Source: a virus. From it: a DNA stretch of 64,000 nt. Both the position numbers and the translations under genes were made by a program. The notes below the pieces were generated by a model that did not search any database, was not told where the DNA came from, and saw nothing but the letters and a program-made list of their open reading frames with translations. Where the stretch lies: the IMG/VR virus record IMGVR_UViG_3300037155_000096; one strand, written 5' to 3'. Below are positions 3,433-37,822 of this stretch, piece after piece (within the stretch, counting starts at the first letter, position 1; every line of letters starts with the position of its first letter).

Positions 3433-3453
3433 ACTTACAAGAAACGTGCTAAG
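3433..3453 (-). promoter_or_regulatory. sigma54-like promoter variant copy 2
   Basis: cttagcacg-tttc-ttgtaagt. Confidence 0.7.
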
Positions 3454-3463
3454 AAAAAAGGTA

Positions 3464-3788
3464 GTCAATACCCGACCTACGTAGCTGGTTCGATAGTGTC
3501 TGACCTATCGGATTGGATCATCGCCACCGACTATCAACAAATGCGAAAGGAACTGTTTCTGAGACGCTCCACCGAGGCATACGTTTTTGCACAAAGTATG
3601 CGTGAGCTTCAGTGCGAACACAGAGGTTTGCGGACTGAGTGTCTTTTCTAAGGACACTATTACCGCTAGACCATTCCTTACTCTCATGCTAGTATGCAAC
3701 CCACATGATCGGTTCTCGCAACTCTTTCAAGGATGCTGGTTATTGCAGCCACCTCCTAAACGAATTCCGGAAACTGCAGGTACTTGAC
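3464..3788. ncRNA. Candidate structured non-coding element (HEARO/omegaRNA- or MITE-like)
   Basis: 325 bp without a credible ORF; inverted termini gtcaataccc/ggtacttgac; several hairpins. Confidence 0.4.
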
Positions 3789-5167: not shown

Positions 5168-5188
5168 ACTTACAAGTTCCGTGCTAAG
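5168..5188 (-). promoter_or_regulatory. sigma54-like promoter variant copy 3
   Basis: cttagcacg-gaac-ttgtaagt. Confidence 0.7.
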
Positions 5189-11433: not shown

Positions 11434-11871
11434 TTAAACTGGTACATAAACTTCTTCCTCTGCTTTCGTCTGGACTCGCTTGCCCAAATATTCTTCTACA
11501 TCAGGCATTCCGCTCCACTGTGCTCTTGCCGTTCTCCACGGATGCTCTAAACTTTTTAATTCTTCCTTAATTCTTCTCTTCTCCCCGCAGGACTCACAGC
11601 ATCTGGCTTTTACCCGATTGTGCCTGAAAGTCATCGTTGCCTCTCCGGCGCATCCCTCGAACTGATAAAAACATTCCTTCAAAGAGTCGAGTACCTTAAT
11701 AAATTTTCTTTGCCGCGTATATACGATGTAGCATTTCTTGCATACCTGCCATTCGTGCTTAGCCAACTTCTCAAATTCATCCCATTCAACGGTCTTTACC
11801 TTGGTCGGATCTTTCACCGGTGCCGAGCAGACTATCTTTCCCTTGATTATCAAATGCGTTTTACTAATCAT
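11434..11871 (-). CDS. Cys-rich hypothetical protein
   Basis: H..C...C..C and CCESC motifs. Confidence 0.6.
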   Translation of the reverse strand: MISKTHLIIKGKIVCSAPVKDPTKVKTVEWDEFEKLAKHEWQVCKKCYIVYTRQRKFIKVLDSLKECFYQFEGCAGEATMTFRHNRVKARCCESCGEKRRIKEELKSLEHPWRTARAQWSGMPDVEEYLGKRVQTKAEEEVYVPV

Positions 11872-11872
11872 G

Positions 11873-12259
11873 CTAATTCACGATGTTTTCATTTTCGGGC
11901 AATTTCTTTCTGTAAATCTCCAGTACCTTGATAACCATAGTAATTGCATCTTCGGTGAGGTCGAGTCTGTTTGCCATTTGCATGATGAAGGGAACTACAG
12001 CGGAATCATGTATTTTAATCATGGACGAACCTTCTTCCCCTTGTCTGATCTCATGGAACGGACCGTCATAATAATCAGTGTTCGGCTCAATCTTCACCCA
12101 TGATAAATCTTCCAGCATTTCGTTTAACTCCGCCAGAGTCAAGGATTCCATGTAGTCAAAGATCAACTTCTCGGACTGCTCCGGGGACTCGTGTGTAATA
12201 TCATAATCTTTAAGTCCGAGTTTCTCCCATATCACATACGACCAAATCGTTTTCATCAA
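11873..12259 (-). CDS. Hypothetical acidic protein
   Basis: First ORF after promoter copy 4. Confidence 0.65.
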   Translation of the reverse strand: MMKTIWSYVIWEKLGLKDYDITHESPEQSEKLIFDYMESLTLAELNEMLEDLSWVKIEPNTDYYDGPFHEIRQGEEGSSMIKIHDSAVVPFIMQMANRLDLTEDAITMVIKVLEIYRKKLPENENIVN

Positions 12260-12289
12260 GTTCCTGTTATTTAACTGTTTGAAGATTAT

Positions 12290-12310
12290 CTTACAATAAA
12301 CGTGCTAAAG
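12290..12310 (-). promoter_or_regulatory. sigma54-like promoter variant copy 4
   Basis: ctttagcacg-ttta-ttgtaag. Confidence 0.7.
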
Positions 12311-12331
12311 AAAAACCGGATTTCTCCGGTT
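12311..12331 (-). terminator. Rho-independent terminator
   Basis: aaccgga-GAAA-tccggtt hairpin whose 3' arm runs into a 5-T tract on minus strand. Confidence 0.7.
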
Positions 12332-12870
12332 GTCAAAGGGCGGGCATAGCGGGACCGTAATTCCCCGCTTCTTTAATACAAACCTCCTATGGTTTCCCAA
12401 GGGTTTCAAGTTCCTCGGTTCCCCATTCTCCACCTTCGCTTGAGACGTCATCAGGCTGGAAATAATTCGTACGCATACTCGGATTTTATACTATACGCCC
12501 ATGTAAAATCAAAAGGCGGACGTAGCGGATTCCTTACCTTCCACAATTTCATACAAGCCTCCTGTCGGTACCTGTAACCCTTCATTGGTGTTCCGTCCCG
12601 TCTCTCCACCTATCCACACGGTAGGTGCCGATGAGCAGCTGTCTCAAACAGCAACTGACATGCGATGGAAATAATCTTGTATGCGTTCGTAGTTCGAACT
12701 GTACGTCCATTAAAATGTTATCCTGGCACCCGATTAAGTGATTACGGGGCTTCTCCTATCCAGCCTCATCTCCGCCTGCTCCAGATCGGGCTGCTCAGCT
12801 GATGTCTCATCCCTCCTTGGAAGGAAATAACTTAGACAGGCACATTCTTGCTATTATGCTACAGGACTTA
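12311..12870 (-). ncRNA. Candidate large structured ncRNA (about 560 nt)
   Basis: Gene-free gap with four long-range 8-9 bp helices (one crossing), GAAA-capped hairpins and a terminator. Confidence 0.5.
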
Positions 12871-12873
12871 ATA

Positions 12874-13113
12874 TCAAAGAGGCAATAGCCTCTGGATCTC
12901 CTCAAAACTATATTTCAATGCGACCTTTTCCAAATGCTCTGCAATCAGAGTATCTTCAAGCGAGACAGGCTTGCGCGCCGGCTCCTTACCGTTCACCGCC
13001 CGCCTTATCATTTCAATTTCTTTCGGATTCGAACTGACCGCGATGTACTCCAATACATCACCAAGTTCTACGTCCACTTCAATCTCTTTACTTATTGTCA
13101 CATTCAGTCCCAT
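12874..13113 (-). CDS. Hypothetical protein
   Basis: ORF coupled to upstream gene. Confidence 0.6.
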   Translation of the reverse strand: MGLNVTISKEIEVDVELGDVLEYIAVSSNPKEIEMIRRAVNGKEPARKPVSLEDTLIAEHLEKVALKYSFEEIQRLLPL

Positions 13114-13886
13114 TAAACTAAATTTCCTACATTATGTCTTATTAGCTTTTTCATTGCCTCCAGATTCTCTGGCTCAGGCAAAGTGAATTCTCTTATTAAA
13201 TTCGTATGACCATAATCCATGAACTCCTTAAATTCATACGCCCTGACATCCGTGAACATTTTCATTAACGGAAGCATCAGACTGGTAAATTCTTTATCTG
13301 TCCACGGCGGAGTCCATACTCCTGACTTGCATAAAACGATTGCACTCAGTTCAATATTCTCTGGCAGTGAGCCAAGTCCGCAGGTGGTCTTGTATCTTTT
13401 CGGGTTGAGGCTGGCGTAACCAAATTTCGGTTTGCCATCCTGCTTTCTTCTTTCTTCTGACGGATAAATCTGATGGACGTTCTTTACCGATCCCTCGCCC
13501 AATAAATGTCCGAGCCAGTTTTCGCAGGAGATCTCATTAAATCCATTATTGTAAAAAATATCATGGTGCGAATCCATGTTGATCACCAGATCATATTTGC
13601 TTTTCCTCAGAGATTCGTAGCCGAACCGGTGACTATCCATAATGAACAGTTGAGCATTATCAGCAATCGTAATATTTTTCTCTTCGAGGATCTCCAAGAA
13701 CTCCCATGGTTCCGTAGTTACCTTTATCATTTCCTTGAGGTCTTTACCCTGCATCATAGCTCCGGTGGCTCTAACACCCCACATCATGTCACCGAAGGAT
13801 ATACCCGCATCCTCATGGAAGTGCATATCCCAAGCCGATGACACCGGGACAAAATAATCCCAATCTATGCTGAGGGCAATCTTCAT
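13113..13886 (-). CDS. UPF0489/arginase-like metallohydrolase
   Basis: LSIDWDYF, MDSHR, INMDSHHD, ENWL, CKSGVWTPP. Confidence 0.7.
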   Translation of the reverse strand: MKIALSIDWDYFVPVSSAWDMHFHEDAGISFGDMMWGVRATGAMMQGKDLKEMIKVTTEPWEFLEILEEKNITIADNAQLFIMDSHRFGYESLRKSKYDLVINMDSHHDIFYNNGFNEISCENWLGHLLGEGSVKNVHQIYPSEERRKQDGKPKFGYASLNPKRYKTTCGLGSLPENIELSAIVLCKSGVWTPPWTDKEFTSLMLPLMKMFTDVRAYEFKEFMDYGHTNLIREFTLPEPENLEAMKKLIRHNVGNLV

Positions 13887-13940
13887 CTATTTCTTTCTCT
13901 TCCTTTGGGTGTTTGTTAAATTTTGTGTTAAAGTGTATAA

Positions 13941-13960
13941 CTTACAAATAGCGTGCTAAG
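13941..13960 (-). promoter_or_regulatory. sigma54-like promoter variant copy 5
   Basis: cttagcacg-ctat-ttgtaag. Confidence 0.7.
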
Positions 13961-16431: not shown

Positions 16432-16905
16432 TCAGAATTCAAGATCCTCTGTTTCCTGAAGATGGGCATCATGATACCCCTTCCCTATCAGAAACTTTAC
16501 AAAGTCATCTACGTTATATTCCTCTTCATCCGTCTTCACATACTCATCCCGCAGAATCCGCAATTCCCTCAGCCCGCCTGTGACAACCAGAACGCCAAGT
16601 GCGCCATCATTGTCCTGCAGGTTGAGATAATGCGTTTTATCTCTGGGGATCGCAATCGGTTTCGTAACTCCAGCCCTTTGAATGGCTACATTGGCACTTG
16701 CCAGTGCTGGAATCCATTGCTCCAGTGTCATTCTCATTATCGGTTCATCCGGATAGTCCAGATGCATCTGCAAAGTGTGGGCAAGATGGCAAACGCTATC
16801 TCCCCTCATAAAAAATCCGGGCCAGTCCTTACCGAACTGAACAACTCCAGTCTCTACCCGTTCGGTCTCATCAAACGGAATTATTCTTACTGGTACTTCT
16901 TCCAT
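16432..16905 (-). CDS. Hypothetical protein
   Basis: Coupled to ligase stop. Confidence 0.65.
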   Translation of the reverse strand: MEEVPVRIIPFDETERVETGVVQFGKDWPGFFMRGDSVCHLAHTLQMHLDYPDEPIMRMTLEQWIPALASANVAIQRAGVTKPIAIPRDKTHYLNLQDNDGALGVLVVTGGLRELRILRDEYVKTDEEEYNVDDFVKFLIGKGYHDAHLQETEDLEF

Positions 16906-18029
16906 TATGCAGCCTCATCGATGTCTGCTTCAAGGCGTATAGCAAATGCTTCTCCGGGCTTACCGACCGCTATCATCGGAACTCCATCCTCAGACAGATC
17001 GAAATACTTAACCATCAGCAACTTGCCGACATAACTCTCCCCGTGTTCAAACCAGTATGCTTTCTTCGAATAGCTACCGACAGGCACTACCTCGAAAGTT
17101 TTGCCATTGGGCAACCCGCAAGTGAAGGTGACACAGCCTTTGTTTCTACCTACTCCATCCGTAAACCCGACGATGGGAAATTCTTTATCCTTGAAACTTT
17201 TTACCTTCAGTACGTCATAGGTCTCTTTGCCAAGGACATACGGAGCCTTGATATTACGAACCATAGCACCTTCATAGCCCTCCAATACGAATCGTTTCTC
17301 ATAAGCGAGGACTTCAGCTTCATTGTTAGCGATGAACGTTTCTTCCACCACGATACTCGGACTATCGATTTTGCTGAATATGTCATTCAATAATTCCAGT
17401 CTTGCATCCTGTGGCATAGAGAGGTCATCCAGATTCACAAGGTCAAAAGCATTGAAATTCATGGCATCAGACTTTGCTCCACGATATTTCTTTACCCGCC
17501 TATTGCACTCCTGAAGGTTGATGCCATGCAGATATATTTCACCGCATGGAATAATGTTCGCCGGAATCTTCCCCGCCAAGGCTTTATTTATATGCTGTAC
17601 GGTATCATACGATTTATTGCCACGACTCTGCAGTTTGATATCGCTGATATCGCCGACAGCCATCGTATTAAGTCCATTCAGCTTATGCTGAACTATGCAG
17701 GGATATATAATCTTCTTCTTATGGTCATCAAATACATTGGCATGCTGCGGAAGGATCTTCGTAGTCTCCTCTGCGCAATCCGGTGTCAATGAATACTTGA
17801 CATCCAATTTCTTCTGCCACTGACTTTTAATTTCAAGTTCCGCCTGCTGTTCAGGTGTGGTTTCATTGGCTTTACCGATGTTCTTACCGACGCAGGCTAC
17901 AGGTTCTGATTCCCTGAGCTTACCGCCCATCTCACCGAACTCTTTAATAATGTTACATCCTTCCGTGCGGATCGTCCATTGCTGGATCTTGCCCGTCTTG
18001 GCTTTCTGATACAATGTTGCTAATATCAT
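16905..18029 (-). CDS. lig: ATP-dependent DNA ligase (phage type)
   Basis: Motif I HKLNG, CGEIY, FDL, YEGAMVRN, LKVKSF, OB-fold tail. Confidence 0.9.
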   Translation of the reverse strand: MILATLYQKAKTGKIQQWTIRTEGCNIIKEFGEMGGKLRESEPVACVGKNIGKANETTPEQQAELEIKSQWQKKLDVKYSLTPDCAEETTKILPQHANVFDDHKKKIIYPCIVQHKLNGLNTMAVGDISDIKLQSRGNKSYDTVQHINKALAGKIPANIIPCGEIYLHGINLQECNRRVKKYRGAKSDAMNFNAFDLVNLDDLSMPQDARLELLNDIFSKIDSPSIVVEETFIANNEAEVLAYEKRFVLEGYEGAMVRNIKAPYVLGKETYDVLKVKSFKDKEFPIVGFTDGVGRNKGCVTFTCGLPNGKTFEVVPVGSYSKKAYWFEHGESYVGKLLMVKYFDLSEDGVPMIAVGKPGEAFAIRLEADIDEAA

Positions 18030-19507: not shown

Positions 19508-19528
19508 ACTTTCAAAGACCGTGCTAAG
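19508..19528 (-). promoter_or_regulatory. sigma54-like promoter variant copy 6
   Basis: cttagcacg-gtct-ttgaaagt. Confidence 0.7.
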
Positions 19529-21297: not shown

Positions 21298-21318
21298 ACT
21301 TACAAGAAGTGTGCTAAG
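21298..21318 (-). promoter_or_regulatory. sigma54-like promoter variant copy 7
   Basis: cttagcaca-cttc-ttgtaagt. Confidence 0.65.
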
Positions 21319-21800: not shown

Positions 21801-21821
21801 ACGAACAAGTTCCGTGCTAAG
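21801..21821 (-). promoter_or_regulatory. sigma54-like promoter variant copy 8
   Basis: cttagcacg-gaac-ttgttcgt, abutting the parB stop. Confidence 0.65.
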
Positions 21822-29324: not shown

Positions 29325-29344
29325 ATTTCAAAAACCGTGCTAAG
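29325..29344 (-). promoter_or_regulatory. sigma54-like promoter variant copy 9
   Basis: cttagcacg-gttt-ttgaaat. Confidence 0.65.
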
Positions 29345-33483: not shown

Positions 33484-33504
33484 ACTTTCAAATCCCGTGC
33501 TAAG
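33484..33504 (-). promoter_or_regulatory. sigma54-like promoter variant copy 10
   Basis: cttagcacg-ggat-ttgaaagt. Confidence 0.7.
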
Positions 33505-37801: not shown

Positions 37802-37822
37802 ACTTACAAGAAGCGTGCTAAG
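37802..37822 (-). promoter_or_regulatory. sigma54-like promoter variant copy 11
   Basis: cttagcacg-cttc-ttgtaagt. Confidence 0.7.

Follow-up and report, generated by a model that had tools for sequence, protein, structure and literature searches.

The gap between 12260 and 12873 raises the question of what a tightly packed viral genome keeps in a stretch without genes. The initial annotation described it as one large, ornate non-coding RNA. We analysed the gap within the window (the whole stretch of DNA under study, 64,000 nt in length) and in related contigs from metagenomes.

Genomic setting and coding potential of the gap

The claim that the gap is gene-free was borne out. Translation with table 11 revealed no ORF longer than 62 aa between 12260 and 12873, no ORF spanned the gap when TGA was read as W or TAG or TAA as Q, gene callers called nothing in it in any related contig and a tblastx search against the proteins of the window detected no relative. 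The sole well-led ORF of the gap begins with AUG 12552 behind an AGGAGG. This ORF is not conserved, because a 1-nt insertion in 11 of 19 haplotypes alters it after codon 16, five of its seven substitutions are non-synonymous and the sequence blocks shared by the repeat units B and C (see below) fall in different reading frames in the two units, owing to compensating 1-nt indels. An open frame that crosses the stretch and is conserved in relatives, as in a protein-coding gene of the standard or a recoded type, was not found.

On the minus strand, the promoter 13959-13944, the 257-aa gene, the 79-aa gene, the gap, the terminator 12331-12314 and the promoter 12308-12293 follow each other in this order. 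The features of the region are:

13944-13959, minus strand: promoter motif TTAGCACG-N4-TTGT, heading the operon that contains the gap
13113-13886, minus strand: gene for a 257-aa protein, first gene of the operon, arginase-fold/UPF0489-like via distant relatives
12874-13113, minus strand: gene for a 79-aa protein, second gene of the operon
12878-12893, minus strand: hairpin AGAGGC-tatt-GCCTCT, overlapping the stop of the 79-aa gene and terminator-like in the window
12305-12331, minus strand: intrinsic terminator AACCGG-agaaat-CCGGTT plus T-run (hairpin 12331-12314), closing the operon
12293-12308, minus strand: copy of the promoter motif, heading the next gene run (11873-12259 onward)
11873-12259, minus strand: gene for a 128-aa protein, start of the downstream gene run

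As it is surrounded by the promoter copies 13959-13944 and 12308-12293 and by the terminator 12331-12314, the gap forms the 3' untranslated end of a two-gene minus-strand operon and stops just short of the next promoter. The minus-strand terminator that was initially said to close the region is indeed present. The T-run of the hairpin at 12878-12893 is interrupted in about half of the haplotypes.

The promoter motif, in the form TTAGCAYG-N4-TTGT, occurs 11 times in the window, each time on the minus strand, with 0.6 copies expected, and a motif profile recovered all 11 with E<=3e-7. The copies are located at:

30-45, 3437-3452, 5172-5187, 12293-12308, 13944-13959, 19512-19527, 21302-21317, 21805-21820, 29328-29343, 33488-33503 and 37806-37821, minus strand: promoter motif

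The geometry of TTAGCACG-N4-TTGT(AAGTTAT..CATAACA) is sigma54-like; every copy heads a gene run and is often preceded by a T-run. A second gene-free block of 325 nt at 3464-3788 on the minus strand repeats the layout of the gap, with a stop codon, a non-coding stretch, a T-run and the promoter motif. It also has GGUGGAG and UAGGAGGUGG, and blastn, profile and covariance-model searches revealed no sequence similarity between this block and the units at 12.3-12.9 kb. The gap is an instance of a wider habit of the element, in which long non-coding blocks end operons just before the next promoter.

The window contains small minus-strand ORFs in a run and an ATP-dependent DNA ligase at 16905-18029, and appears to derive from a large phage or phage-plasmid. 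Peat, wetland and soil metagenomes contain near-identical contigs that reach 179 kb. Searches of Pfam, PHROGs and PADLOC gave no family match for the 257-aa or the 79-aa protein. The motifs DSHRFGY and MDSHHD occur in the 257-aa protein, whose distant relatives in Clostridia and other phages (23-34% identity) carry arginase or UPF0489 annotations, and a metal-dependent hydrolase with the arginase/deacetylase fold is a possible identity for it. A distant homologue of this protein is found on an unrelated, phage-like contig of 106 kb, which also encodes a CsrA-family protein (PF02599; 3816-4010, minus strand). The 128-aa gene carries a 33-nt in-frame insertion after 12092 in one metagenome contig, giving a product of 138 aa with 90% identity.

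Tandem units and the proposed ornate RNA

The long-range helices of the proposed RNA exist in the sequence, with 8 perfect bp each at 12453x12759, 12471x12679 and 12632x12790 and 9/10 pairs at 12441-50x12800-09, but they are not beyond chance: four perfect helices of at least 8 bp were observed compared to 1.5±1.3 in 500 dinucleotide shuffles, 8% of which reach four (p=0.08). Folding was no better than that of dinucleotide-shuffled sequence on either strand or in any sub-part, an outcome named in the initial annotation as refuting the proposed RNA, with z = -0.77 (minus) and -0.75 (plus) for the whole region and -1.37 to +1.28 for eight sub-segments. The helices join non-homologous parts of different repeat units, and no variant among the relatives falls where it informs them. 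ARAGORN revealed no tRNA or tRNA-like gene in the whole 64-kb window, at odds with a tRNA-like 5' arm that had been described.

Searches with the covariance models of Rfam 15, which include GOLLD, ROOL, OLE, HEARO, group I/II introns, T-box, riboswitches, Csr/Rsm RNAs and ribozymes, gave no hit in the whole window at gathering thresholds. Over 12150-13000 at E<=10 they detected two junk matches only (snoR442 with 16 bits and mir-210 with 14 bits, thresholds 50). The comparison with GOLLD, ROOL or introns is unsupported. A T-box reading (GGUACCG) was dropped, as Rfam support was nil.

We consider a single GOLLD- or ROOL-like RNA of about 560 nt, built on nested long-range helices and a pseudoknot, highly improbable. 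Its helices can be found and a stop codon and a terminator bound the stretch, but the helix count is at chance level, the fold of the whole region is ordinary (z about -0.8), Rfam has no counterpart at E<=10, the pairing partners lie in non-equivalent parts of the repeat units and the variable sites give them no test. What stands is a non-coding, terminator-ended stretch that matches no Rfam family and may contain a new structured RNA; the architecture proposed for it does not stand. Internal repeats together with chance complementarity account for the seemingly ornate architecture, and the main present value of the analysis is corrective.

The sequence GGAAATAA, initially noted for its threefold occurrence, is present at 12458-65, 12667-74 and 12823-30 and corresponds to TTATTTCC on the minus strand. 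It had been missed that these copies mark three diverged tandem units and that the minus strand is the relevant one. Blocks recur at distances of 175-176 nt, TTATTTCC recurs at 156 and 209 nt, and each tandem unit opens with TTATTTCC. Judged from its sequence, the gap is three diverged tandem copies of a unit of about 175 bases, not one ornate RNA. Read on the minus strand, it comprises a 43-nt leader, unit A (12830-12678), unit B (12677-12469), unit C (12468-12332) and the terminator:

12678-12830, minus strand: unit A, TTATTTCC at 12830-12823; keeps AGG(C/U)GGAGA, GGAUAGGAG and the tail AUGGACGUACAGU, without the core of units B and C
12469-12677, minus strand: unit B, TTATTTCC at 12674-12667, core 12611-12509
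12332-12468, minus strand: unit C, TTATTTCC at 12465-12458, core 12435-12333
12483-12512, minus strand: sigma-70-like promoter match TTGATT-18-TAAAAT between units B and C, which may be due to chance

Local alignment of units B and C reached a score of 56 compared to 26±4.6 in shuffles (z about 6.4) and that of units A and B a score of 42 compared to 27±5 (z about 3); an alignment of units A and C was not better than shuffles. Unit A is degenerate: it has the 5' box and the tail in common with unit B, its core is lost, and it was detected neither by the B/C profile nor by the covariance model. Searches with blastn, nhmmer and the covariance model revealed no further copies of the unit in the window. 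The 103-nt core shared by units B and C contains AGGUGGAGA, GGGRA, AGGAGGnUUGUAUnAAA and CCGCUAyGyCCGCCnUUUGA. Overall, the two units are 55% identical (about 45% diverged), and their identity is clumped, with 9/9 and 37/57 identical positions in the blocks vs 14/37 in the stretch of helix P2 (Fisher p=0.012; clumping p=0.02).

The copies of TTATTTCC were also considered as degenerate copies of the promoter motif, which was dropped, since the motif profile finds none inside the gap. Likewise, CGCCCUUUGACAA in unit C resembles an rrn boxA by eye (10/13); this reading was dropped as the sequence is absent from unit B. The local hairpin CCTTGG-GAAA-CCATAGG of the initial annotation is present on the minus strand at 12405-12389.

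A predicted three-helix module shared by two units and its variation

Units B and C share a foldable module. RNAalifold on a plain (unbiased) MAFFT alignment of the B and C variants predicted the helices P1 (GGUGG/CCGCC) and P3 (GYGGR/YCCGC), as well as a small hairpin in the AGGAGG region. P2b appears at the same position in both single-sequence folds with unrelated sequences (GGAAC-CC/GG-GUUAC in B, CCGAGG/CCUUGG in C), and P2a forms a short basal stem beneath it. The predicted elements are:

12509-12611, minus strand: core of unit B; P1 12610-12606 with 12519-12515
Unit B, minus strand: P2, consisting of P2a 12600-12599 with 12567-12566 and P2b 12594-12587 with 12580-12574
Unit B, minus strand: junction AGGAGGCUUGUAUGAAA 12563-12547; P3 12544-12540 with 12529-12525
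12333-12435, minus strand: core of unit C; P1 12434-12430 with 12343-12339
Unit C, minus strand: P2, consisting of P2a 12426-12423 with 12392-12389 and P2b 12418-12413 with 12402-12397
Unit C, minus strand: junction AGGAGGUUUGUAUUAAA 12388-12371; P3 12368-12364 with 12353-12349

The consensus energy of the module was -14.5 kcal/mol, and column-shuffled alignments gave -6.0±2.6 (z -3.3; 0.2% of them attain the observed value); a structure-guided realignment of P2 gave a z of about -6, which is biased by design. In P1, P2a and P3, 84/84 cells pair, vs 37-71% when the partners are slid by 1-3 columns. Between the paralogues B and C two pairs are changed on both sides (C-G/G-C and A-U/G-C) and one pair is exchanged on one side (U.G/C-G); the covariation amounts to two events, since the module is carried by two independent lineages only (B and C).

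G.U pairs in P1, in P3 of unit B and in P2b of unit C are A/C mismatches on the plus strand, where the consensus energy is -8.7 compared to -14.5 on the minus strand. The polarity of the module fits the direction of transcription, as several of its pairs are G.U pairs on the minus strand only. The z from column shuffling is nearly as strong on the plus strand (-3.1) and reflects mostly conserved complementary blocks.

The junction strands AGGUGGAGA, GGGRA and AGGAGGnUUGUAUnAAA are purine-rich and unchanged between units B and C, and AGGAGGnUUGUAUnAAA reads like a Shine-Dalgarno site followed by a start codon. The minus strand has 22 GGA in 560 nt, an approximately 2-fold enrichment that places the gap in the top 2% of the window. 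A further helix predicted in the 5' part of unit B is weakened by the common variant 12629.

To describe variation within the population, we used 23 related contigs that are 96.6-99.8% identical over 11700-13900, 19 of which cover the gap. Five helix positions are variable. Three of the changes are G.U/G-C exchanges, namely 12543 U>C and 12525 C>U, which keep P3 of unit B paired, and 12417 C>U, which turns a C-G pair in P2b of unit C into U.G; the other two, in P2b of unit B, make one pair and break one. The variants 12514 and 12346 fall on the n and the y within the conserved 3' block, and 12357 and 12323 are located in loops, 12323 A>C being the terminator's only variant. Indels are confined to the leader, the tail of unit A and the U-run that follows unit B, all outside the two cores. 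This pattern of variation inside the cores is friendly to the three-helix model. One contig has a 6-nt insertion (ATTTTG) after 12717 in the tail of unit A, and the T-run 12504-12509, i.e. the U-run after unit B, shows a 1-nt length polymorphism in 11/19 contigs.

Nine fully linked substitutions within 52 nt (12578-12629) split the haplotypes into 11 vs 8 contigs, with the rest of the gap differing by about 2%. Six of the nine lie in or beside P2b of unit B, four of them in the loop, one making and one breaking a pair. The tract resembles a short segment acquired by recombination or conversion from a more divergent relative that is not among the sampled contigs.

Segregating sites are as dense in the gap (20/563) as at third codon positions of the flanking genes (18/466; p=0.87) and denser than at their first and second codon positions (p=0.005). 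As the density in the gap equals that of third codon positions, the population data reveal no clear purifying selection. The strong constraint suggested by a first pairwise estimate was too optimistic and failed with 19 haplotypes. The clumped identity of the paralogues B and C is a better argument for long-term constraint than the population data.

Relatives, competing readings and known systems

Searches of INPHARED phages, PLSDB plasmids, IMG/VR, JGI metagenome contigs and GTDB genomes revealed no relatives below 96% identity. All copies found are 96-100% identical, come from peat and soil metagenomes and represent one phage lineage only; a metagenome scan yielded three contigs, again near-identical. 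A blastn search with the gap against phages and plasmids gave a single 44-nt chance match in a Sinorhizobium replicon. Seven matches of a pattern scan in IMG/VR were all purine-rich coding sequence and were rejected, as was the sole match in GTDB to the exact AGGAGGnTTGTATGAAA, where the string truly starts a gene of an unrelated genome. Proteins distantly related to the 257-aa protein (23-34% identity) or the 79-aa protein (40-51%) are encoded in other contexts, without a non-coding gap.

With somewhat less than even confidence, we favour the reading of the gap as a lineage-specific RNA tail of tandem modules. A unit of about 175 nt would have been triplicated in tandem to give the gap, and units B and C keep a module of about 105 nt that can form the closing helix P1, the two-part hairpin P2 and the hairpin P3. 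The tail would act as RNA, each module showing a ribosome-binding-site look-alike or a GGA-rich surface, and could titrate or park a partner such as the 30S subunit, a CsrA-like protein or a phage RNA-binding protein. Alternatively, the tail might protect the 3' end of the operon transcript. We regard the lack of coding, the place in the operon, the repeats, the foldable module common to units B and C and the minus-strand polarity of its pairs as shown, and infer both the function as RNA and the decoy or stabiliser mechanism; the support for any RNA function is suggestive but thin. Single-sequence folding never beats shuffles (z -1.4 to +1.3), segregating sites show the density of third codon positions, column shuffling gives a similar z for the plus strand and the module is present in two independent lineages only, the core of unit A being lost. 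In addition, variant 12629 weakens the 5' helix of unit B, and all relatives are at least 96% identical. A tblastn search with phage CsrA revealed no CsrA gene in the 64-kb window.

The main rival of the RNA tail is a decaying tandem duplication, which we regard as unlikely but of real weight. The gap would then be a triplicated spacer or former gene start with its ribosome-binding site, its only role would be to carry the terminator, and the shared blocks would be what has not yet mutated. The polymorphism density, the absence of a signal in folding energy, the degenerate unit A and the confinement of the element to one lineage all fit decay, and since AGGAGGnTTGTATGAAA starts a real gene in an unrelated genome, the block could be a fossil translation start. 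However, units B and C have diverged by about 45% and still keep perfect blocks of 5-9 nt next to a P2 stretch near saturation (p=0.012-0.02), these blocks are mutually complementary and their pairing survives two double changes, and the cores are free of indels. Moreover, a tightly packed genome would be expected to shed 560 useless bases, and the gap shows no similarity to any protein of the window.

Regulation at the level of DNA, with the blocks as protein-binding sites (e.g. activator sites for the sigma54-like promoter 12308-12293) or as internal host-type promoters, appears improbable. It would be in keeping with the position of the blocks 25-320 bp upstream of a copy of the promoter motif, with the sigma-70-like match between units B and C and with a column-shuffle signal that is alike on both strands; however, most other copies of the motif lack a comparable upstream non-coding stretch, the motif profile finds no degenerate copy in the gap, the blocks are neither palindromic nor helically phased, the G.U pairs make the helices strand-specific and sigma-70-like sites are at chance level (2 found vs 1.5 expected). 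We find it very improbable that the AGGAGG-N5-AUG of unit B (12563-12550) drives a peptide of 20-33 aa, with unit C as a decayed paralogue starting with AUU and with the peptide or the act of translation as the function. The spacing is canonical, the second codon is AAA, the same string begins a real gene elsewhere and at least 20 codons are open in all haplotypes, but the 1-nt insertion makes the C-terminus wholly different between haplotypes, the substitutions are mostly non-synonymous (5/7), the shared blocks lie in different frames in units B and C and no gene is called there in any contig.

A more specific version of the RNA tail would be peculiar to the phage-plasmid: three-helix modules, each with a decoy ribosome-binding site (AGGAGG-N5-AUG/AUU) in its conserved junction, would sponge 30S subunits or a regulator that binds GGA or Shine-Dalgarno sequences during infection or plasmid carriage. 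We see no more than a slim chance for it; if true, such a decoy sponge would constitute a new family and give a mobile element a novel means of adjusting translation in its host. Should the modules have any function, they would form an orphan RNA family of the phage-plasmid, designed as a repeat of modules with decoy motifs for translation start, and would lengthen the short list of phage RNAs known to target host machinery.

The gap belongs to none of the Rfam families, tRNA-like elements, type III antitoxin arrays or ornate RNAs with which it was compared. In its putative mode it would be closest to multi-module sponge RNAs or tandem paralogues of small RNAs, and with low confidence the element may be a variant of this tandem-module kind of regulatory RNA. 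Like CsrB/CsrC and RsmY/RsmZ, it is made of non-coding repeated units with an intrinsic terminator at the end and dense GGA, some of it in ACA-GGA...-UGU-like contexts (e.g. ACAGGAGGCUUGU). In contrast to these RNAs, it has no Rfam match, its units measure about 175 nt and are not hairpins of about 20 nt, its GGA lies mostly outside the predicted hairpin loops with few in loops, no CsrA is encoded in the window and the RNA would be located at the end of an operon and not in a stand-alone gene.

Listeria LhrC1-5, Vibrio Qrr and OmrA/B are tandem paralogous small RNAs, in which each copy has its own promoter and terminator, and which carry C-rich or seed motifs that pair with mRNAs. The gap is similar to them in that diverged tandem copies keep short single-stranded motifs between variable helices; however, only its last unit has a clear terminator and its motifs are purine runs resembling Shine-Dalgarno sites. 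With ToxI, CptI and the pseudo-ToxI of phages, in which such arrays are known, it has in common the order of tandem RNA repeats, terminator and next gene. Repeats of the ToxI type are nearly identical and 34-50 nt long, whereas the units of the gap are about 175 nt long and about 55% identical, and the downstream protein, which has its own promoter, shows no PADLOC or Pfam match to ToxN, AbiE or CptN.

With GOLLD, ROOL and OLE the gap shares the phage context and several hundred non-coding bases, but it has no covariance-model match at E<=10, a long-range architecture at chance level and internal repeats. It also resembles tandem riboswitch aptamers (glycine, c-di-GMP), with two adjacent multi-helix junction modules of about 100 nt, conserved strands and a terminator directly after the second module. 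In contrast to such aptamers, the modules are located after the operon and not before it, no antiterminator pairing was found and Rfam gives no match; a metabolite aptamer is also made less likely by the confinement of the module to one phage lineage.

Contigs from four metatranscriptome runs contain pieces of the flanking genes at similar depth, and two of the runs cover parts of the gap (12276-12425, 12557-12784, 12217-12323 and 12294-12417). These contigs show neither the strand nor the ends of a transcript and may include DNA carry-over, and they count neither for nor against an RNA. An insert of 124 nt (12294-12417) in run X18, which has Illumina adapters on both sides and the highest depth (16.8), could represent RNA from read-through, carried-over DNA or PCR duplicates of a single short fragment. 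The insert covers the 3' half of unit C and the terminator and extends into the next promoter motif.
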